Shown in pieces: positions 11,454-39,511 of a DNA stretch of 64,000 nt. Each line of letters begins with the position of its first letter. Position 1 is the stretch's first letter. This DNA is from Rhodothermales bacterium (GTDB lineage Bacteria > Bacteroidota > Rhodothermia > Rhodothermales > VXPQ01), in the NCBI GenBank assembly GCA_040904565.1, contig JBBDTI010000084.1, forward strand, positions 11,939-75,938. The letters are read 5' to 3'. The translations under genes were made by a program, and so were the position numbers. Below the pieces are notes generated by a model that was given only the letters and a program-made list of their open reading frames with translations, ran no database searches and had not been told where the DNA came from.

Positions 11454-12251
11454 TCAAAAGCCAGCTATTAGGCGCGTGAGGGATGCAGCCACCAGTGCCC
11501 AAAGAAAGCTGATCAGCGTACCGATAATAATGTATTCGGCTTCCATTCGGTTGGATCGCTCCCGGAGTTCGCCGAAGCGGAAGATCGATTTGGCTGCGAC
11601 GAGAAATCCAATCGCGGCATACTGGTCGATGAGCACGAAGACGAAGATGAGGGCGCGTTCCAGCTGGCCAATCGTTCTGCCGCCATGTTTGAGTCCGCGC
11701 GAGGGTGCATGCACCGCGCGGTCGCCATCGCCAACGTGAGCGGGTTCCGGTACGCGGCCGGACTCTCGTCGGGACGCGTCGCGGCGTATCTGACCGAGAA
11801 ATGGCTCGACGGCTTGTTCGACAAAGTAGGCGCCCGCTGTTACGGTCACGATAAAGCCTGCGACCACGGCGATCATGTGGAAGTAAATGACGCCGAACAG
11901 TTCCTTCCAGAGCGAGTCGTCGAGAAAATCGAAGCGAACGGTCAGCCATGCCGCCAGGAGTATCACGACACCGTGAAGCGCTTGATCCACCAGAAATGCT
12001 CTCCATCCTTTTGCCTTCACCCGCGTCTTTCCAAGGTCCACGATCACGTGCGTGGATGAGATGATCAGAGCCGGAAACCAGGCGGTCCATGTGCCCGCGA
12101 AGATGAATACGAGTACGGCATGAATCGCACCGTGCTTGGCGAGGACGGATATCCGCCCTTTATTTTCAATGTCACGGCGGGTCTGCAGCAGAAAGTCGGC
12201 CGTTACGTGCGCAGCGAGAAATGCCAGGATAGCCTCGTTTAAAACAGTCAT
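11454..12251 (-). CDS. DUF3307 family membrane protein (SatE-like)
   Basis: AHVTADFLLQ, KHGAIH, THVIVD, VDQALH, G..IG.LER.LI, IGFLVAAKSIFRF, EYIIIGTLIS. Confidence 0.88.
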   Translation of the reverse strand: MTVLNEAILAFLAAHVTADFLLQTRRDIENKGRISVLAKHGAIHAVLVFIFAGTWTAWFPALIISSTHVIVDLGKTRVKAKGWRAFLVDQALHGVVILLAAWLTVRFDFLDDSLWKELFGVIYFHMIAVVAGFIVTVTAGAYFVEQAVEPFLGQIRRDASRRESGRVPEPAHVGDGDRAVHAPSRGLKHGGRTIGQLERALIFVFVLIDQYAAIGFLVAAKSIFRFGELRERSNRMEAEYIIIGTLISFLWALVAASLTRLIAGF

Positions 12252-29745: not shown

Positions 29746-32238
<2,493 letters not shown>

Positions 32239-32270
32239 AATGGTATCGGGGGATACGTATTGGGGGTATA

Positions 32271-32307
32271 ACAAAAAAAGCCCACCTGCCGCGCGGGCAA
32301 GTGGGCT
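32271..32307 (-). terminator. Intrinsic terminator in the 5' leader of the sulfite reductase (attenuator)
   Basis: Minus strand AGCCCACUUGCC-cgcgc-GGCAGGUGGGCU followed by UUUUUUGU; G-U wobble fits the minus strand; about 32 nt before the ATG. Confidence 0.85.
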
Positions 32308-32341
32308 CTCGGAATGTGGATACGATAATCTCGATCCGGAG

Positions 32342-32467
32342 CTAAGAGGACCTCCGTTTGAAGCCATCCCCTACCACTGGCACGCACGGCGCGCAGGCGT
32401 TCGAACAGCAACAACAACAGGCTGCCGTCGGCATGTAAGGGATACGAATCACGATCATCGGCATCAT
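32342..32467 (-). CDS. Poly-cysteine leader peptide
   Basis: MMPMIVIRIPYMPTAACCCCCSNACAPCVPVVGDGFKRRSS* (TGT TGT TGT TGC TGT); alternative starts include 32458 and 32434. Confidence 0.75.
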   Translation of the reverse strand: MMPMIVIRIPYMPTAACCCCCSNACAPCVPVVGDGFKRRSS

Positions 32468-32716: not shown

Positions 32717-32742
32717 ATAAAGACGGCGTGCCGCGGCCCGTC
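32717..32742 (+). promoter_or_regulatory. Putative ECF promoter, degenerate copy (ATAAA-N17-CGTC), upstream of the ECF sigma gene
   Basis: ccatcgggATAAAgacggcgtgccgcggccCGTC; shares the ccatcggg context with the 33440 copy. Confidence 0.5.
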
Positions 32743-32795
32743 CGCGTATGGTCGATGGAGGGTCGGGGCAATCATGCGTTCGCGCGAGGGGAGAA

Positions 32796-33431
32796 ATGTT
32801 TGAGAGGCTCCGGCGTAGATTTGGTCGAAGACCCAAGCGGCGAAGTAATGCGGAATGGGTGCGCGATCTTGCGGCGGCCGACTCGCATGCGATCACGGAT
32901 CTTCGTGCGGAGCTGTTGCGCGGCGTCCGGATCGTACTTCGTCGCCGTGCTCCGGCGAAGGCGGAGGATCTTGCTGAAGATTTCGTCCAGGAGGCCGTGC
33001 TGAAGATCCTCGTTAGCCTCGACTCGTTCCGAGGAGACAGCCGCTTCATGACCTGGGCCCAAACCATCGTTGTTCGAGTCGCCTTCACGGAGCTGCGGCG
33101 GAAACGATGGGAGAACGTTTCGCTGGACGGACTCGTGGATGAGCGGCCGTTTGGGGGTCTCGACGCAGCGGGCGATGCGGCTGTTTCAGAGACGCTGTCT
33201 GAGCGGAATGCGGCCGGTCTGCTGCGCGAGCTGATGCAGTCGGAGCTCACCGAGAAGCAGCGCACCGCGATTGAGGCGGTCATGCTGCACGGCATGCCTA
33301 TCGATGAGGTAGCGCGGCGGATGGATTCGAACAGAAACGCGCTTTACAAGCTGCTCCACGATGCACGCAAGCGGTTGAAGGAAGGATTCGAGGCGCGCGG
33401 CCTGACCCTCGAGCAATTGCTCGACGATTAG
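32796..33431 (+). CDS. ECF RNA polymerase sigma-70 factor
   Basis: AEDFVQEAVLKI..LDSFRGDSRFMTW (region 2); LTEKQR..EVARRMDSNRNALYKLLHDARKRL (region 4); SD GAGGGGAG. Confidence 0.93.
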   Translation: MFERLRRRFGRRPKRRSNAEWVRDLAAADSHAITDLRAELLRGVRIVLRRRAPAKAEDLAEDFVQEAVLKILVSLDSFRGDSRFMTWAQTIVVRVAFTELRRKRWENVSLDGLVDERPFGGLDAAGDAAVSETLSERNAAGLLRELMQSELTEKQRTAIEAVMLHGMPIDEVARRMDSNRNALYKLLHDARKRLKEGFEARGLTLEQLLDD

Positions 33432-33439
33432 CCCATCGG

Positions 33440-33465
33440 GTAAGGTTTCCTCGCCGTAAAGCGTC
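33440..33465 (+). promoter_or_regulatory. Putative ECF promoter GTAAG-N17-CGTC upstream of anti-sigma and tlpA
   Basis: GTAAGgtttcctcgccgtaaagCGTCt. Confidence 0.65.
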
Positions 33466-33482
33466 TGGATGTTGAACGGAGG

Positions 33483-33743
33483 ATGATGAGAATGAAGCTT
33501 ACGCGTACCGTCATCAAGGCCATACTCGAAGCCGTTTTTGCCACACAGCCGGTCGAAATCGGCTGCGACGAGTGCTTTGAGCAGGTTCACCGATTTGCAG
33601 AGATGGAGCTCGCCGGTGAAGACGCCGCGTCGGCGCTCCCGCTCGTTCAGTCGCACCTCGAACGGTGCCGCGACTGCCGGGAGGAATTTGAGATGCTGCT
33701 GGCGGCGCTGCGTGCCGTTGCCGGAAACAACTCCCCGAAATGA
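33483..33743 (+). CDS. Soluble zinc-finger (ZAS-type) anti-sigma factor
   Basis: IGCDEC...HLERCRDCREE (Hx3Cx2C); no TM segment. Confidence 0.85.
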   Translation: MMRMKLTRTVIKAILEAVFATQPVEIGCDECFEQVHRFAEMELAGEDAASALPLVQSHLERCRDCREEFEMLLAALRAVAGNNSPK

Positions 33744-33759
33744 ATGCTTCGTACCTGAG

Positions 33760-34299
33760 ATGATGTCCGGAGAGCATAACACCGTATGGAGCCTGTTCCT
33801 TCTCGGCGCCGTGATGGTGCTGCTCGTCGTCTCCGGATGCGCGGGGGATGAAGATTCGAGAGAGGCCGTACGGTCGCCAGTGGCGGTTCTGGAGGCCGCG
33901 CCGGATTTCGAGCGTGTCACGATGGAGGGCGACACGCTACGCCTTTCGGAGCTCGATGCGAGCGCGATCGTGCTCAATTTCTGGGCCACGTGGTGCGCGC
34001 CATGCAGGGTCGAAATCCCGGGATTCATAGCGATTCAGGAAGAGATGGACGCTGAGCGGGTCCGGTTTGTCGGCGTCTCGTTCGACGAAGACGGATTTGA
34101 AGCGGTCCGGCCGTACGCTGAAGAAATGGGCATCAATTACCCCCTCGTGATCGGAGACGATGCACTGGCGAGCGATTTCGGCGGCGTGCCCGGCCTTCCC
34201 ACCACGTTCTTGCTCGACGGCGGCCTGCACATTCGCCAGCGGTTCGTCGGGGTTGTGGATGAAGAGACGCTGCGCTCCGTACTGGAGGACATGCTCTAA
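33760..34299 (+). CDS. TlpA/ResA-like thiol:disulfide oxidoreductase lipoprotein
   Basis: Lipobox VSGC; APDF, VLNFWATWCAPCRVEIP, GLPTTFLLD. Confidence 0.92.
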   Translation: MMSGEHNTVWSLFLLGAVMVLLVVSGCAGDEDSREAVRSPVAVLEAAPDFERVTMEGDTLRLSELDASAIVLNFWATWCAPCRVEIPGFIAIQEEMDAERVRFVGVSFDEDGFEAVRPYAEEMGINYPLVIGDDALASDFGGVPGLPTTFLLDGGLHIRQRFVGVVDEETLRSVLEDML

Positions 34300-34694
34300 C
34301 GATCCTCCCCGGAGGACGTCTCGCGGACGGAGTGTGCGACGACGCCGGAAGAGGAAACCACGAGCGTGAACCGGATACGGTCGTCCACGTCGATGCCGCC
34401 TACAGAAGCGGTGTCGCTTACGGCGAAGGGCATCGTCATCGCGTGCATGAAGCCGGGTATCTCGTCGTGTTCGACGACGATATGGCTACCGCTCGGCGTG
34501 ATGGAGCGCAGGACCCCCGTGACCTCGTAGTGTCGTTCGGAGGGCTCCTCCGTCTCCGGTGGGGTCGTCGTCATTTCTGCTTCCTGTTCGCCGGGTATCG
34601 GAGGAGGATCCGCCGATTCGCTGCTGCAGCTCACCAGGAGCAGACCTGTGAGCAACAGAACGACGACGGGGATCGCTGTTGGATATGCGTGCAT
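34296..34694 (-). CDS. CusF-like periplasmic copper-binding lipoprotein
   Basis: Lipobox LVSC; YEVTG..VVEHDEIPGFMHAMTMPF...IRFTL. Confidence 0.88.
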   Translation of the reverse strand: MHAYPTAIPVVVLLLTGLLLVSCSSESADPPPIPGEQEAEMTTTPPETEEPSERHYEVTGVLRSITPSGSHIVVEHDEIPGFMHAMTMPFAVSDTASVGGIDVDDRIRFTLVVSSSGVVAHSVRETSSGEDR

Positions 34695-34735
34695 GTCCCG
34701 CTGCTTCCTAACTCGACTACACTCCTGTTCCACGC

Positions 34736-35233
34736 CTAAAGGATGAACGTCCACTCGTCACCCTGCTGGAGTTCCACGCGCTGGGGGATCAGCACGCCGT
34801 TCGATCGGACCTCGCCGCGGACGCGAACGGTCTGCGCCATGTAGTCGGCGAGGACGGCTGGTGCCGTCACCAGAATCCAGACGTCGGGTCCCCGCTTGTC
34901 GTCCAGTAGCAGGCCAACCGGGAAACCGCTGCGGGCGCAGAGGATCGCACAGTCCGGCACGAACCCTTGCGGACGATCGTGGTCAAGGCCGGCGTTGGCG
35001 TGATCGTCCGCGTAGCAGTGCGTGTCGATGAGCGTGCCGGTCAGAGCGATCACGTCTCCCGGCGCGGCCGCCATCGGTGGCCGTCCGGACGGATCGGTGG
35101 CCCCGTCGCGGCCTTCCGCGGCCTCGTCTTGCCTGCCGTCGGCGTCCGGTGGAATCTCGGGTTCGTCCGCCTGGCATCCGACCAGCAGTACGAGCACAAT
35201 AAGGGACGAAAGTATCATAAATCGATGGACCAT
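34736..35233 (-). CDS. Hypothetical lipoprotein with DxxCY..H..CAxxC motif (OB-fold-like)
   Basis: Lipobox LVGC; LTGTLIDTHCY..DH..CAILCARSGFPVGLL..VRVRG. Confidence 0.8.
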   Translation of the reverse strand: MVHRFMILSSLIVLVLLVGCQADEPEIPPDADGRQDEAAEGRDGATDPSGRPPMAAAPGDVIALTGTLIDTHCYADDHANAGLDHDRPQGFVPDCAILCARSGFPVGLLLDDKRGPDVWILVTAPAVLADYMAQTVRVRGEVRSNGVLIPQRVELQQGDEWTFIL

Positions 35234-35321
35234 AGCGTCGCCGGGCCGAATGGGAACGTCGCCGGCGAAGTGCATCGAAGCATGCTTCACCGGCGAGCGC
35301 TTCACATACGGTCGCCCCCTC

Positions 35322-35741
35322 CTACATCATGGTAGCCAGATGCACCTCTTCCCACTCGCCGTCGGCGTTCTTCACCTCCAGCTTCGTCGGAATGATACCG
35401 CCGGGATAAGCCAGGTCGCCGACGACCCGGGCGTCCTTTGCGGCATGCTCGGCGAGCTGTGGAGCGGGTGTGACCAGTATGTACACCTGGCCGTCAGCTT
35501 CTCCACCCTCCAGGATGCCGACCGGAATGCCCATCTGCGCACAGGCCGTGGCGCAGTTCGGCAGCTTTCCCATCGTGCCGTCCTCCATAGGGACGACATG
35601 TTCGTTGTCGACGTTCATGTGGTTCATGCCGTAACACTTCGTGTCGATCAGCTTGCCCGTCACGGTGACGGCTTCAGACGTGCCGTCCGCGCCCGTCAAG
35701 ACGAACATCATGGCGATGAATAGGGACGTGAGCAATTTCAT
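35322..35741 (-). CDS. Secreted paralogue with DxxCY..H..CAxxC motif (OB-fold-like)
   Basis: Signal peptide; VTGKLIDTKCY..EH..CATACAQMGIPVGIL..ARVVG. Confidence 0.82.
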   Translation of the reverse strand: MKLLTSLFIAMMFVLTGADGTSEAVTVTGKLIDTKCYGMNHMNVDNEHVVPMEDGTMGKLPNCATACAQMGIPVGILEGGEADGQVYILVTPAPQLAEHAAKDARVVGDLAYPGGIIPTKLEVKNADGEWEEVHLATMM

Positions 35742-35827
35742 GGCGTCGACCTACAGTTGGTTGGGGTGTTGTGACGATGATGGCCAGAGGCATGCTACGT
35801 AGGCATGACATCCTCAGGTAATATGAA

Positions 35828-35853
35828 GACGACGTGAGGCGCGGATGTCTTAC
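35828..35853 (-). promoter_or_regulatory. Putative ECF promoter GTAAG-N17-CGTC driving the 35741-34296 operon
   Basis: Minus strand gGTAAGacatccgcgcctcacgtCGTCt. Confidence 0.65.
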
Positions 35854-35982
35854 CTGTAATCCGTGAATGACTGCGAATCTTTCGATCGTATCGGCCGACG
35901 CGGCACGGCGACGGCGCGCCACGGGCACCGGTGGAGCGACGAGATCGTTACGGTTCAAGCGGTTGTTCGAGGGCGCGAAGAA

Positions 35983-36008
35983 GTAAGGATATTGGGATGC
36001 GGCTCGTC
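35983..36008 (+). promoter_or_regulatory. Putative ECF promoter GTAAG-N17-CGTC driving 36077-37528
   Basis: GTAAGgatattgggatgcggctCGTCc. Confidence 0.65.
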
Positions 36009-36076
36009 CAAACAACACAGCAACATGCTACACCGCACTCGAAACGAAGAACACTCAAGAATTGCGAAGTCATACC

Positions 36077-37057
36077 ATGACTCTATATACCATCCGCCGC
36101 AGCTGGAAATCCGTCCTGGGGACTATTCTGGTCGCCTGCCTGCTTCCACTCGCGCCCGTTCTCGCGCAGGACGGCGGGGATAGGGCCGAACAGATGGCGC
36201 AGCTCAAAGAGATGGCGCCGGCGAAAGGGTACGTGAACGCGCATAAGGACGTCGAGCAGCCGTTCGGTCTGCTGGGGGGTCCCATCACCGCGACGATCCG
36301 GCAGCAGAGCGGCGGCGTCTTTGTGGCCCTGCCCGATCAGCGCGAGCTCGATCCCCGCGTGTTCGGCACGCCGCAGATGCCCCGTGCGCTTGCGGGAACG
36401 CCGGGTGTGAACGGCGTGCCCCTGATGGCCAGGGCGGCGGAGAACGGTGCCTTCACCGTAATGTCGCAGCCGTCTCCGTTCGGTGACGCCTTCGTCGCGA
36501 TGGGCAACGGCCGATTGCAGCTCGACGCGGTCGACGCGACGGCCACGGATGCCGCGCGATCGGACGATGAGGTCTCCATGATGGCGAGCTGGGAAGACGA
36601 GGGAGGAAACACGTACGAGGTGCGATGCTGCCAGATGCTCGCCACGCATGGGATGGAGTTTCCCACGTTCGGGGGGGTCGTAACGAACCACATCCTGCAC
36701 GGCTTCACGCGTATCGGGACCGCCCTCATGCCCAGTGAATACACCTACGTGGCCTTCTGGGGAATGGGTGAAGTCCGAAAGAACGGCGACGTGATCGACC
36801 GGCCGCGTTTGGTCCACGGCATGCTCACCGAATACGTCCGCAAGCAAGACTACAAGCTGGCCTTCGACGAGGAGGTTACGCCGACGCGCCGGCACTTTCA
36901 CCTGATGGTCGCTCCGTTCATGCCGGTGCCTGAAGAGGGAACGTTCGAGCAGAATCCCGTCACGACCGGATTCACGCTGCCCAACGGCATGGAGCTCCCT
37001 TTCTGGCACGTGATGTTTGAGAATCTGGAGATCGAAGCGTCTCGCGGCGCGGAATAG
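36077..37057 (+). CDS. Secreted hypothetical protein with clustered His/Met motifs
   Basis: Signal VLA-Q; THGMEFPTFGGVVTNHILHG, VAFWG, VHGMLTE, RHFHLM, FWHVMFE. Confidence 0.82.
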   Translation: MTLYTIRRSWKSVLGTILVACLLPLAPVLAQDGGDRAEQMAQLKEMAPAKGYVNAHKDVEQPFGLLGGPITATIRQQSGGVFVALPDQRELDPRVFGTPQMPRALAGTPGVNGVPLMARAAENGAFTVMSQPSPFGDAFVAMGNGRLQLDAVDATATDAARSDDEVSMMASWEDEGGNTYEVRCCQMLATHGMEFPTFGGVVTNHILHGFTRIGTALMPSEYTYVAFWGMGEVRKNGDVIDRPRLVHGMLTEYVRKQDYKLAFDEEVTPTRRHFHLMVAPFMPVPEEGTFEQNPVTTGFTLPNGMELPFWHVMFENLEIEASRGAE

Positions 37058-37102
37058 CGAAACGTACGCCCGCCCGACGCTCCTCTCTCAGAAAGCAGAC
37101 CT

Positions 37103-37528
37103 ATGTCGTATAAAACCATCGTACTCGCGGCGATCGCTGCGTGCGGGGTGCTGGCGCTCTTTACGTCCGCTGCGGACCCCTCTCTGCCGGAAGCGGCAGT
37201 CGACGCCGATCTCGGTTCGGCTCCCGACGCCGTCGTCGGCATGACCAACACGCTCAAGTTCGAACCGGATACGGTCGAGGTCACCTCCGGAGAGACGGTC
37301 GAATGGAGAAACACGTCTCTTTTCGTTCATACCGTAACGGCGGACCCGGACGAAGCGACGCTCGAAGAGAGCGTTCGGCTGCCGGACGGCGCGGAGGCGT
37401 TCGACTCGGGCACGATCGAGCCGGAGGGGGTTTTCCGGCACACGTTTACCACGCCGGGCGTCTATCGCTATTTCTGCATTCCGCACGAGGGTGTACGGAT
37501 GTATGGAACGGTGATCGTCGGCGACTAA
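37103..37528 (+). CDS. Type-1 blue copper protein (plastocyanin/halocyanin-like)
   Basis: LKFEP..V..GETVEW.N, HTVT, YRYFCIPHEGVRMYG (H, C, H, M ligands). Confidence 0.92.
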   Translation: MSYKTIVLAAIAACGVLALFTSAADPSLPEAAVDADLGSAPDAVVGMTNTLKFEPDTVEVTSGETVEWRNTSLFVHTVTADPDEATLEESVRLPDGAEAFDSGTIEPEGVFRHTFTTPGVYRYFCIPHEGVRMYGTVIVGD

Positions 37529-37580: not shown

Positions 37581-39053
37581 TCAGACGATGTCTCCGGGTT
37601 CGTAGGTGTTGACCGGTCCACGATATCCCATCACCTTTTGAAGGATGCGGACGAAGCGCGGGGAGTAGTTCCGGATGTACCACTGGTCGGCCGCGCGGCG
37701 CGCTCCGAGACCGTAGGTGGGATACGGGTGGATGGTGTCGGAGATCTGGCGGAGCGTCACGCCGTTCCGCATGGCAACCGCAAACTCTCCGATCAGGTCA
37801 CCCGCGCCGGCCCCCAGAATGCTGGCGCCCAGGATCTTGCCCGTAAGCTTCTTCGCGAAGACCTTGATGAGTCCGGTCGTGTTGCCGTCCGTTACGGCCC
37901 GGTCGATCTTGCCGAAGGGAAATCGGTACACCTCGAATCGGGTACCCTGTTCGCGGAGCGCGGCTTCCGTCGCCCCGACGTGGGCCAGCTCGGGATCCGT
38001 GTAGGTTGCCCACGGGACGTGCTCGTCGTCGATCGACATCGGCATCTTCAGAAGCGCATTGGTAACGGCAACCTTCGCCATGTGTTCGCTCATGTGCGTG
38101 AACTGGTACCGGCCCGTTACGTCACCCGCGGCGAAGATATGACGGACGTTCGTCCTGCACCGACGGTCCACCGTAACGCCTCTCGTGGTGAAGGCGATGC
38201 CGGCTGCGTCCAGACCGAGCTCCTCCACGTTCGGCCGCCGACCCGTCGCGACCAGGAGCGCGTCCGCTTCGATGGTACGTCGTTCATCGTCTACTTCCAT
38301 GCCGACGCGCAGCTGAGGGCCGGCTCGCTCGACGCGGCGCACGCCGGCGTTTAGCACGTACTGGACCCCTTCCTCGACGAGTGCAAGCCGGAGCATGTCG
38401 GCCAGCTCCTCATCGTCGTTCGACAGAATACGGTCGAGCCGGTCGATGACGGTGACTTCCGTTCCCAGACGAACGAACGCCTGGGCCATTTCCGTTCCGA
38501 TGGGACCCCCGCCAATGATGGCGAGCCGCCGGGGCTGCTCCCGCGGCTCGAAGAGGTTTTCGTTGGTCAGATAATCGATTTCCTGGAGGCCCTCGATCGG
38601 CGGGATGAAGGCGCGGGCGCCGGTCGCGATGACGAAATAGCGCCCCCGGATGGTCTCCGTCCGGCCCTCTCGTTCCAGCTCGATGGTATGCGCGTCGACG
38701 AAGCGGGCGTGGCCCTCCCGCGTCTCGACGCCCATCGCTTCGATCACTTCCGGGCGGTCGGCGTCGTGATACACGTCTTCGCGCACGGCGTCGACATGCC
38801 GCATGACCGCGCGGAAGTCGACCTCTACCGTGCCGCTCGTGATGCCGTAGCGTGCGCTCTGACGCACGGTATGTGCAACGGCCGCCGATTTCAGCAGCGT
38901 CTTGCTCGGGATGCAGCCGGTCCACGTGCAGTCGCCGCCGAGGCGATCCCGCTCAATCAGGAGCGATTTCGCGCCCAGATTCGCGCCGACGCCCGCCGCG
39001 GTGAGTCCGGCAGCGCCCCCTCCGATGACAATCAGATCGTAATCCTCACTCAT
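37581..39053 (-). CDS. Class I pyridine nucleotide-disulfide oxidoreductase (LpdA/MerA-like, no C-terminal CC)
   Basis: GGGAAG, GGDCTWTGCIPSK, GGGPIG.E, ATGRRPN, AAGDV, HPYPT. Confidence 0.9.
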   Translation of the reverse strand: MSEDYDLIVIGGGAAGLTAAGVGANLGAKSLLIERDRLGGDCTWTGCIPSKTLLKSAAVAHTVRQSARYGITSGTVEVDFRAVMRHVDAVREDVYHDADRPEVIEAMGVETREGHARFVDAHTIELEREGRTETIRGRYFVIATGARAFIPPIEGLQEIDYLTNENLFEPREQPRRLAIIGGGPIGTEMAQAFVRLGTEVTVIDRLDRILSNDDEELADMLRLALVEEGVQYVLNAGVRRVERAGPQLRVGMEVDDERRTIEADALLVATGRRPNVEELGLDAAGIAFTTRGVTVDRRCRTNVRHIFAAGDVTGRYQFTHMSEHMAKVAVTNALLKMPMSIDDEHVPWATYTDPELAHVGATEAALREQGTRFEVYRFPFGKIDRAVTDGNTTGLIKVFAKKLTGKILGASILGAGAGDLIGEFAVAMRNGVTLRQISDTIHPYPTYGLGARRAADQWYIRNYSPRFVRILQKVMGYRGPVNTYEPGDIV

Positions 39054-39055
39054 GT

Positions 39056-39409
39056 TTACACGTAGTCCTTTTTGTTTTCAGGCTTCTCTTGAGCGCGAAT
39101 CCGTCGTCGAATTTTGTTTACGGTCGAGACGACGCCCGCGCCGATCATCACGGCGATGACGGCGTAGACCCAGACCGGCACGCCCCTCCCCGCGACCAGT
39201 AGATAGAGGTAGGCGGAGATGAAAAAAAACGACGCGCTGAGTGCCGGCAGGACGATGGAGCGCTTCTTACGCACGTTACGGACGATCCAGGCAACGGAGA
39301 GTGTAAAAAATGGGATGGCGCCAATGTAGATGATACCGAATACGATCGGGTTGACGCCGTATTCGCGTCCCAATCCCATGAACCAGTCGACCAGGGCATT
39401 CCACGTCAT
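39056..39409 (-). CDS. Small 3-TM hypothetical membrane protein
   Basis: YGVNPIVFGIIYIGAIPFF, three hydrophobic segments; 2 bp from the oxidoreductase start. Confidence 0.75.
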   Translation of the reverse strand: MTWNALVDWFMGLGREYGVNPIVFGIIYIGAIPFFTLSVAWIVRNVRKKRSIVLPALSASFFFISAYLYLLVAGRGVPVWVYAVIAVMIGAGVVSTVNKIRRRIRAQEKPENKKDYV

Positions 39410-39511
39410 GATGTCGCACGCAAGAAGATGTAAGCTGTCGTTCGGATGGCGCCTATTGGAGTCGTCGCGGCCCTTCGTCGAAAGGTCACGTCACGGCGTT
39501 ACGCCGTTTGC

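Follow-up and report, generated by a model that had tools for sequence, protein, structure and literature searches.

Which genes does the extracytoplasmic function (ECF) sigma factor encoded at 32796-33431 (plus strand) in a 64,000-nt stretch of Rhodothermales DNA control, through which promoter, and in answer to which signal? The stretch, hereafter called the window, covers positions 11,939 to 75,938 of contig JBBDTI010000084.1 (GenBank assembly GCA_040904565.1), i.e., C84:11939-75938 of genome G000 (4.02 Mb; 95 contigs; 94.9% complete). Directly downstream of the sigma gene lies a gene for a small cytoplasmic anti-sigma factor of the zinc-associated anti-sigma (ZAS) type, followed by genes for exported proteins, among them members of two unannotated families, P331 (331 aa) and P139 (139 aa). 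The original prediction, made from the letters of the window alone, described a self-contained ECF regulon with the promoter GTAAG-N17-CGTC and a candidate periplasmic copper/thiol-redox function. We give a probability of about 70% to the reading in which this sigma/anti-sigma pair, through GTAAG-N17-CGTC as its cognate promoter, drives three local units of exported cargo. The core of this reading, an ECF promoter with a compact local regulon, is well supported by the sequence comparisons described below.

Three exact copies of GTAAG-N17-CGTC were found in the window, at 33440-33465 (plus strand), 35828-35853 (minus strand), and 35983-36008 (plus strand), all of them intergenic and correctly oriented, as predicted. 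Site 1, GTAAGgtttcctcgccgtaaagCGTC(tg), which reads GTAAGGTTT...CGTCTG, lies between the sigma stop codon and the anti-sigma start, 26 nt upstream of the likely anti-sigma ATG at 33492. Site 2, GTAAGacatccgcgcctcacgtCGTC(tt), faces the P139-P189-cusF genes and lies 86 nt upstream of the P139 ATG at 35741, and site 3, GTAAGgatattgggatgcggctCGTC(ca), faces the P331-cupredoxin genes, 68 nt upstream of the P331 ATG at 36077. Sites 2 and 3 stand back to back, with 129 bp between them, within the 335 bp that separate P139 from P331. In 100 dinucleotide shuffles of the window sequence, the mean was 0.44 copies, and one shuffle reached three; because the motif was defined from these same three sites, this statistic is post hoc. 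The genome-wide and cross-genome tests are, unlike the window shuffle, independent ones.

For the genome-wide test, genes were mapped with a codon-score caller trained on long open reading frames (ORFs), which gave 3,227 genes covering 87% of the genome. The whole genome contains 46 exact copies of the motif, compared with 32 for the backwards control pattern in the same count (53 in the count made on the gene map). Six of the 46 are intergenic on this map, and three are in promoter position (within 250 nt upstream of a gene on the same strand); these three are exactly the window sites. On the same map, the 53 copies of the backwards control included 3 intergenic ones and 2 in promoter position, and the N16 and N18 spacings each yielded 2 in promoter position. 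The description of the regulon as self-contained is thus borne out for exact copies. That chance alone brought together three copies of a short, degenerate pattern, a notion favored by its having just nine fixed bases and by the one shuffle in 100 that also reached three copies, has a negligible probability in our view, given that all three, and only these three among the 46 genomic copies, occupy promoter position and that the motif is kept in all 30 orthologous loci described next.

A search with the 86-aa anti-sigma factor in 285 genomes of the order identified the family in 39 genomes, from 14 of 105 genera. All 30 fetched loci have a sigma orthologue (43-69% identity) immediately ahead of the anti-sigma gene, and in each the motif stands between the sigma stop and the anti-sigma start, as an exact copy in 26 and with one mismatch in the other 4 (GTAAT, GAAAG, CATC, and CCTC variants at the same place). 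Two further junction loci with the motif were reached through the P331 search (L018 and L052). In an alignment of 39 exact sites, the nine core bases are fixed by the search pattern, so their constancy is uninformative; the 17 spacer positions vary, CGTC is followed by T in 25 of the 39 and then by A in 24, and CGTC is preceded by G or T in 36. A variable spacer combined with such base preferences points to a two-block promoter pattern rather than to a conserved RNA or coding element. Retention of the motif at 30 of 30 junctions over a freely varying spacer thus favors its predicted role as the promoter recognized by the neighboring ECF sigma factor, which would read GTAAG-N17-CGTC, usually followed by T/A and then A/G. 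One relative, G159, holds two paralogous sigma/anti-sigma pairs (on C37 and C136), each with its own exact motifs; one pair adjoins a DUF3179 gene and the other adjoins P331-cupredoxin. In many loci of genus g38 (e.g., L086, L089, L092, L094, L096, and L103), the anti-sigma ATG lies just 10 to 14 nt past CGTC, a distance that leaves no room for a Shine-Dalgarno sequence and implies a leaderless, or nearly leaderless, transcript.

The motif also recurs ahead of orthologues of P331, P139, and DUF3179 genes in other genomes, which lends further weight to the predicted promoter. Exact copies precede the P331 orthologue in G003 (L077) and G159 (L018); in L026, one copy precedes a DUF3179-P331-cupredoxin run and another a radical-SAM/DUF3641 gene. 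P331 was found under the motif in four genomes only, i.e., G000, G003, G159, and the genome of L026. In G268, an exact copy lies ahead of the P139 orthologue, divergent from the sigma gene (L124), and a CusF-like gene follows the anti-sigma gene (L084). The motif was also found ahead of DUF3179 in L082, of a Met-rich DUF1440-like membrane protein in G033 and G052, and of a YceI-like protein in G051. In two genomes of genus g38, exact copies precede trxA-trxB (G194, L113, C1 at approximately 492684; G051, L130, C1 at approximately 3805323), where trxA encodes a thioredoxin with WCGPC and is followed by a thioredoxin-reductase-like gene. The extended pattern gave three hits in G194 and five in G051, compared with none for the backwards control. 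Outside the phylum, the anti-sigma profile matched 5 of 400 gammaproteobacterial genomes, and in two gammaproteobacterial loci, with sigma factors 40-46% identical, exact motifs precede genes for AhpD-like and YHS-like exported proteins. The motif-preceded genes there are L133:207-794 and L133:1995-2450 (G654) and L134:2084-2578 (G649); by eye, they encode an AhpD/CMD-like protein with CxxC and, in both genomes, a secreted YHS-type protein.

The motif equals a consensus that is already in print. For sigmaE of Neisseria meningitidis, the accessible part of the report by Hopman et al. (2010; PMC2893595) gives a -35 block GTMAGBWTT (GTAAGGTT), a spacer of 12 to 13 nt, and a -10 block CGTCTAAH. 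Written in the form used here, GTAAG-N16/17-CGTCTA, our sites have the same spacing as the two Neisseria blocks, and the predicted CGT-type ECF promoter thus has a published counterpart. These comparisons bear on the idea that the motif is real and conserved, yet is not read by the adjacent sigma factor, being instead a site for another ECF sigma or a junction kept for the stop codon in GTAAG or as a signal for translation or termination. In 13 of the 26 exact junction sites (L083, L087, L093, L095, L097-L100, and L104-L108; read by eye), the TAA of GTAAG indeed doubles as the sigma stop codon, so that the anti-sigma promoter overlaps the 3' end of the sigma gene there, and the genome encodes other ECF sigma factors, with one-mismatch sites of, e.g., the GTAAC or GGAAG type being common. 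Against this, the other 13 junctions and all sites ahead of other genes have no such overlap, CGTC keeps a fixed 17-nt distance over a variable spacer, and the motif accompanies the sigma family in two phyla as well as equaling the consensus deduced for the homologous Neisseria system. We regard a non-cognate motif as very improbable.

The sigma factor itself (211 aa from the ATG at 32796) belongs to the ECF (group IV) class, with sigma-2 and sigma-4 domains only in about 200 aa. It matches Pfam Sigma70_r2 (39.7 bits; cut-off, 24), Sigma70_r4_2 (35.4 bits; cut-off, 25.7), and TIGR02937 (76.8 bits; cut-off, 42.9), and its best relatives in the Protein Data Bank (PDB) are ECF sigma factors, with RpoE first (1or7; E = 1.5e-7) and then SigH and SigW. 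The longest ORF starts at 32748; the N termini of the orthologues (MMFERL...) favor the start at 32796. The anti-sigma gene lies at 33483-33743 (plus strand), with a likely start at 33492 after a GGAGG at 33478-82. The anti-sigma factor has 83 to 86 aa and no transmembrane or hydrophobic segment, and it begins 52 to 61 nt past the sigma stop. All 22 orthologous sequences compared keep C28, C31, H58, C62, and C65, and C31-x26-H58-x3-C62-x2-C65 has the layout of a ZAS site, in agreement with the predicted ZAS assignment. The protein also aligns in register, although weakly, with the ZAS residues of RsiW (E = 0.059) and RsrA (E = 0.68). A structural model of the sigma/anti-sigma complex, built with our own alignments supplied, scored 0.86, compared with 0.01 for the best control; three runs shared at least 85% of contacts, partner confidence (predicted local distance difference test [pLDDT]) was at least 83, and 58 of 80 solved complexes, as against 2 of 110 mismatched pairs, attained the mark used. 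The modeled interface spans sigma-2 (residues ~77-101) and sigma-4 (~159-209). Because similar ECF/anti-sigma complexes have been solved, this result may reflect likeness to those pairs and is no proof of binding.

Because the motif equals the published Neisseria sigmaE consensus, the regulator, as judged from its sequence, belongs, or comes close, to a kind already described, in which an ECF sigma factor is paired with a small cytoplasmic ZAS anti-sigma factor. According to the accessible part of PMC2893595, sigmaE (NMB2144) of N. meningitidis has a ZAS anti-sigma factor, MseR (NMB2145; Cys4/His30/Cys34/Cys37), encoded directly downstream, and PMC3240639, as far as it could be consulted, describes a tiny regulon consisting of the sigma factor's own six-gene operon, which includes a DoxX protein, and msrAB. 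The present system resembles sigmaE-MseR as described there in its gene order, in the size and cytoplasmic location of the anti-sigma factor, in its Cys plus H-x3-C-x2-C residues, in the promoter blocks (GTAAGGTT and CGTCTAA at the same spacing), and in a very small, partly exported regulon. The two differ in wiring and targets. In the published descriptions, the Neisseria promoter precedes the whole six-gene operon, which amounts to positive autoregulation, whereas here the promoter lies between the sigma and anti-sigma genes and nothing canonical lies ahead of the sigma gene; in Neisseria, msrAB and the DoxX operon are controlled, whereas the targets here are genes for TlpA-like, OB-fold Cys3His, CusF-like, and P331-cupredoxin proteins, with msrA and msrB lacking the motif.

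A second described relative is RpoE2 of Haemophilus influenzae. Its 67-aa cytoplasmic ZAS anti-sigma factor HrsE, small like the one here, is co-transcribed with the sigma gene and binds the sigma factor, and RpoE2 is induced by HOCl, H2O2, and paraquat, with periplasmic targets and "very limited" autoregulation (accessible part of PMC7907618). The same source places these systems in "ECF group 13," a group whose original form was merged into ECF293, according to the part of PMC7826278 that could be consulted. As described in PMC7907618, the periplasmic repair enzymes that are RpoE2 targets are encoded nearby and autoregulation is only slight; the targets (MsrAB, MtsZ, a DMT transporter, and a DoxX cluster) are unlike those here, and the accessible part of that report mentions no internal promoter ahead of the anti-sigma gene. 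Control of msrAB as in the Neisseria/Haemophilus type was not seen in G000. Since accounts of this regulator type and its motif exist for Neisseria and Haemophilus, the original prediction overstated the novelty of the system.

SigR-RsrA of Streptomyces coelicolor is a further analogue, in that a soluble ZAS anti-sigma factor may act here, too, as a thiol-redox switch. trxBA is a classic SigR target, and the motif would likewise drive trxA-trxB in the g38 relatives. The SigR promoter sequence differs from the motif here, the anti-sigma factor falls short of the RsrA model (21.1 versus 62.5 bits), and the regulon here is small and exported.

Several points weigh against the reading that we prefer. 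The kin genomes cannot count as independent cases, since a single family accounts for 28 of the 38 genomes other than G000 in which the anti-sigma factor occurs; G000, in turn, is incomplete, at 94.9%. The codon-score gene map is home-made and takes the longest starts. The anti-sigma factor stays under the cut-off of TIGR03988 (the RsrA equivalog) and matches no Pfam family at an E value of 0.01 or better. The likeness to Neisseria sigmaE is one of promoter, gene layout, and anti-sigma residues. The four orthologous junction sites that, if they work at all, do so with one mismatch indicate that one-mismatch members elsewhere in G000 are possible, though such sites are unenriched. Lastly, the genes that typify the regulons of the known relatives lack the motif in G000: the best copy at trxA-trxB (C67:25334-26795) has two mismatches, and within 400 nt upstream of the single msrA (C72) and the single msrB (C85) there is no canonical copy, the best having two mismatches at msrA and one mismatch at N16 spacing at msrB. 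Together with the differing targets among genomes, this absence indicates that the regulon, as read from promoter sequences, is rewired from genome to genome around a thiol/oxidant/metal theme, which takes in the thioredoxin system and AhpD-like, YHS-like, CusF-like, TlpA-like, and DUF3179 genes.

With these reservations, we return to the preferred reading, that of a ZAS-controlled ECF sigma factor with three local promoters, and set out how it would work. The anti-sigma factor would bind the sigma-2 and sigma-4 domains of the sigma factor, and the complex would come apart once the Zn-Cys site is attacked by an oxidant that reacts with thiols or by a thiophilic metal, e.g., Cu(I). The freed sigma factor would then transcribe three units, namely, the anti-sigma gene with that for a TlpA-like thioredoxin-fold lipoprotein (unit 1), genes for two OB-fold Cys3His exported proteins (P139 and P189) with that for a CusF-like lipoprotein (unit 2), and those for the exported beta-barrel P331 and a type-1 cupredoxin (unit 3), and the cargo products would be exported. 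Because the promoter sits between the two regulatory genes and the sigma gene lacks such a promoter, activation would raise the anti-sigma factor (here, together with TlpA) and not the sigma factor. Such negative feedback without positive autoregulation would make the response self-limiting. We infer this wiring from where the promoter lies, a position that all 30 loci have in common.

The comparison gave no support to the claim that the sigma gene is autoregulated. The original prediction had placed weaker promoter copies ahead of the sigma gene (ATAAA-N17-CGTC at 32717-42), a gene pair for a membrane protein and a disulfide reductase (GTAAC-N17-CGAC at 39502-39477, minus strand), and a DUF3179 gene (GTTAC-N17-CGTC at 41518-43). 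All three are present, each with two mismatches; as 736 of 3,159 (23%) 200-nt upstream regions of G000 hold a copy with at most two mismatches, they are not above chance by themselves, and none was accepted as evidence. For 29 sigma orthologues, the upstream DNA holds at best a two-mismatch copy in 6 loci, a three-mismatch copy in 21, and a four-mismatch copy in 2; a copy with at most one mismatch was found in 0 of 29, and the 6 two-mismatch copies correspond to the background rate. The copy ahead of the membrane-protein gene overlaps a hairpin at 39493-39507 as well, and the claim for that gene pair is likewise unsupported. The DUF3179 copy fares no better in G000 itself, and it gains some comparative support from the exact copies in L026 and L082. 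We also adopted none of the 33 one-mismatch copies in promoter position in G000 as regulon members, there being no enrichment over the backwards control (52 with at most one mismatch).

The six non-regulatory products of the three candidate units all carry signal peptides or lipoboxes (translations read by eye). In unit 1, the tlpA-like gene (33760-34299, plus strand) begins 16 nt past the anti-sigma stop and, from this spacing, is probably co-transcribed with the anti-sigma gene. Its product is a TlpA/ResA-like thioredoxin-fold lipoprotein with WCAPC and a visible lipobox (VVSGC), i.e., a protein of the TlpA/ResA/DsbE kind, with a thioredoxin fold, a CxxC, and export or anchoring. It matches Pfam AhpC-TSA (71.4 bits) and Redoxin (57.5 bits) and stays under the equivalog cut-offs of NCBIfam ResA (80.3 bits; cut-off, 170) and TlpA (61.4 bits; cut-off, 230).

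Unit 2 begins with P139 (35322-35741, minus strand), the first gene after promoter 2, whose product is an exported protein with a predicted OB fold. C35, H47, C62, C66, D32, T33, and W129 are invariant in this family, which comprises 44 homologues, none with a Pfam family, and of which the few named in their sources are called "hypothetical protein." An AlphaFold2 (AF2) model (pLDDT, 87.9) has nearly exclusively OB folds among its top fold matches, with weak scores (Foldseek best E = 0.01, to a single-stranded-DNA-binding protein [SSB]; VIA best Z = 7.1, with a root mean square deviation [rmsd] of 3.3 over 70 residues aligned to 4dam_A); on these weak matches, the predicted "OB-fold-like" label is kept for P139. 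The next gene, P189 (34736-35233, minus strand), encodes an exported lipoprotein that is a paralogue of P139, with 31% identity to the P139 family, the C, H, C, and C positions retained, and a weak match to DUF5818 under its cut-off (E = 7e-4). The last gene of this minus-strand operon (34296-34694; 132 aa from the ATG at 34694) encodes the CusF-like lipoprotein, which matches Pfam CusF_Ec (PF11604) with 47.2 bits (cut-off, 27) and the NCBIfam CusF subfamily model with 23.1 bits, under its cut-off of 143. Like CusF of Escherichia coli, it is a small exported protein of the OB-fold kind with a CusF_Ec domain above the Pfam cut-off; unlike the E. coli Cus system, it is a lipoprotein with no CusCBA genes nearby. 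The tlpA and cusF-like genes are convergent and their stop codons overlap at 34296-34299, so that transcription of each of the two ECF-driven units would run into the other, the overlap leaving no space for a terminator; a terminator-like site was not detected there. As candidate roles for these products, the original prediction has TlpA keeping Cys ligands reduced and the CusF-like and OB-fold-like proteins trafficking Cu.

The cargo and the relatives together bear on the signal. A thiol-reactive oxidant is favored by ZAS chemistry, by the trxA-trxB targets of relatives, and by the induction of RpoE2 by HOCl and H2O2, and we give it odds of about even or slightly better. Copper stays in play because of the CusF-like protein, the cupredoxin, and the Cys/His/Met-rich cargo; as the direct signal we consider it unlikely, and the rest of the probability goes to both signals or to something else. 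In its strongest form, the copper alternative is a dedicated copper-stress regulon in which cytoplasmic Cu(I) displaces the zinc of the anti-sigma factor, the CusF-like and OB-fold Cys3His proteins are chaperones, and P331-cupredoxin is a cuprous oxidase or copper sink. The CusF_Ec match, the type-1 cupredoxin, the invariant Cys3His of P139 and P189, and the invariant His and Met residues of P331 fit such a regulon, as do the CusF-like gene that also adjoins the sigma/anti-sigma pair in G268 and the YHS-like exported proteins that appear as targets in the two gammaproteobacterial loci, YHS being a metal-binding domain. However, CusCBA, CopA, or a multicopper oxidase was not found in the locus (ORF list; Pfam on 10 genes), the same motif stands ahead of trxA-trxB in genus g38, the studied relatives respond to HOCl and H2O2 as far as the published descriptions go, and most P331-cupredoxin loci have no copper-homeostasis neighbors, the recurrent ones that were scanned being FMN reductase, DsrE-like, AhpD-like, and DoxX genes. 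A dedicated copper-stress regulon is an unlikely alternative, if the most serious one, to the preferred reading.

The P331-cupredoxin module of unit 3 is a genuine unknown and the most interesting part of the locus. The cupredoxin (37103-37528, plus strand) is an exported type-1 protein of the plastocyanin/amicyanin-like kind that matches Pfam Copper-bind (PF00127) with 55.7 bits (cut-off, 21.2). Type-1 cupredoxins have the ligand pattern His...Cys-x2-His-x4-Met; the translation shows FVHTV and CIPHEGVRM, i.e., the type-1 domain with its ligand pattern, including C-x2-H-x4-M. P331 itself (36077-37057, plus strand), an exported protein with a predicted beta-barrel, gave no match in Pfam or NCBIfam family scans. 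It has 474 homologues at an E value of 1e-5 or better; among 120 listed, none has a Pfam family, and those with a source name are called hypothetical or uncharacterized. A profile search gave 359 clusters at 50% identity. In 40 sequences, H56, H208, H247, H275, H311, M218, M249, and M313 are invariant, and the Cys-Cys pair of P331 is lost in divergent fused forms. The AF2 model (pLDDT, 75) is a beta-barrel in which the invariant stretch 195-217 is poorly modeled. A comparison of the P331 sequence with solved structures gave nothing below an E value of 0.39, and no fold family was adopted, as the best matches (Foldseek, E = 0.034; VIA, Z = 7.1 with rmsd of 4.0 over 119 residues of an OmpA chain) are generic beta-barrels. 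A Protein Atlas feature match to "DUF4412" (0.96) was treated as a lead only and not adopted. Literature on the P331 or P139 families, or on this sigma family in Rhodothermales, was not found in the searches made, none of which was aimed at P331 by name, as the family has none.

We fetched 63 P331 loci, most at 50-79% identity (66 as counted with three duplicates), from Rhodothermales, Balneolaceae, Salinibacter/Salinivenus, Gemmatimonadota, Calditrichota, Gammaproteobacteria, Acidobacteriota, Nitrospinota, Ignavibacteria, and SAR324; among contigs with P331, those nearest to ours carry the names of Rhodothermales or Bacteroidetes metagenome-assembled genomes (MAGs). The cupredoxin gene directly follows P331 in 56 of the 66, and in a SAR324 MAG contig (L064:1605-2975) both are joined in one reading frame of 457 aa. 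A scan of 16 long P331 homologues for fused domains identified a C-terminal cupredoxin in 7, one of which also has a pyrroloquinoline quinone (PQQ) beta-propeller, two or three c-type cytochrome domains in 2, a type IX secretion sorting domain in 2 (P0239 and P0283), and tandem P331 repeats in 3 (P0166-P0168). The homologues fused to cupredoxin, cytochrome c, or a PQQ beta-propeller plus cupredoxin are P0169-P0171, P0173, P0181, P0190, P0174, and P0188. All-against-all ORF clustering of the 63 loci yielded no conserved third partner of P331-cupredoxin; the occasional neighbors are FMN reductase (11 loci), DsrE-like (6), AhpD-like (5), and DoxX (5) genes. In five P331-bearing genomes of other phyla, the anti-sigma profile had no match, which indicates that the module is under other control there. 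In L033, a gene for a Pfam DoxX protein follows the cupredoxin; a DoxX gene also heads the Neisseria sigmaE operon. In L052:1224-2547, from a Gracilimonas MAG, genes for a small exported protein and a DoxX-like membrane protein lie on the opposite strand between the anti-sigma gene and P331.

As P331 is repeatedly fused to small electron carriers, we read it as part of a periplasmic redox module, most likely, to judge from these gene fusions, a periplasmic redox protein with the cupredoxin as its electron partner. The original prediction had the cupredoxin exchanging electrons with an uncharacterized enzyme, a proposal that gains support from the P331-cupredoxin and P331-cytochrome c fusions. 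Known periplasmic redox enzymes with a dedicated cupredoxin include methylamine dehydrogenase with amicyanin and NirK with pseudoazurin; as in these pairs, an exported protein, P331, is encoded beside a small type-1 copper protein, and in some lineages P331 is fused to the copper protein or has c-type cytochromes in its place. Unlike those enzymes, P331 has no sequence relative and no clear fold relative among solved structures. A more specific version, to which we give somewhat worse than even odds, is that P331 is the catalytic or cofactor-bearing subunit of an undescribed family of periplasmic oxidoreductases, with a His/Met-rich barrel and possibly a new copper site, which passes electrons to the cupredoxin or to fused cytochromes and was recruited in Rhodothermales into a thiol/oxidant-sensing ECF regulon. 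If this is true, the substrate of P331 would be a product of envelope oxidative or metal stress, e.g., Cu(I) or an oxidized sulfur species.

Two neighboring regions of the window may be described here. At 37581-39409 (minus strand), a 490-aa pyridine-nucleotide disulfide oxidoreductase is encoded, preceded by a 117-aa membrane protein (the mem117/PNDR pair mentioned above in connection with a weak copy); the oxidoreductase scores near, and under, the cut-offs of MerA, dihydrolipoyl dehydrogenase, and "FAD-containing oxidoreductase" models. The gene for the 117-aa membrane protein also adjoins P331-cupredoxin in two Salinivenus contigs (L028 and L031) and the sigma gene in G050 (L109). Upstream of the locus, at 29746-32367 (minus strand), lies an 873-aa ORF that by eye is sulfite/nitrite reductase-like and ends in several KLPPGY-like repeats within a Lys/Ser/Glu-rich tail.

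Taken as a claim of one module, the original prediction stands in its ECF promoter and its compact local regulon, is unsupported in autoregulation and the weaker sites, and stands in part in its biochemical story. Neisseria and Haemophilus already have this kind of regulator and promoter code; the novelty lies in a promoter placed ahead of the anti-sigma gene only, in the phylum, and in the cargo. The oxidant-responsive ECF/ZAS switch of the Neisseria/Haemophilus type would thereby be extended to Rhodothermales and to some Gammaproteobacteria, and because the promoter code is the same, regulons may be read from sequence in uncultured genomes. From the wiring variant, which all 30 loci share, one would expect a pulse-like response that limits itself rather than a bistable or amplifying one. 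For the cargo, the finding offers a regulatory handle on a small family of exported OB-fold Cys3His proteins and on a widespread unannotated module, P331-cupredoxin, whose 359 clusters at 50% identity are spread over many phyla. Membership in a thiol/oxidant or metal stress regulon would narrow the functional experiments to be done on the P331 and P139 families.

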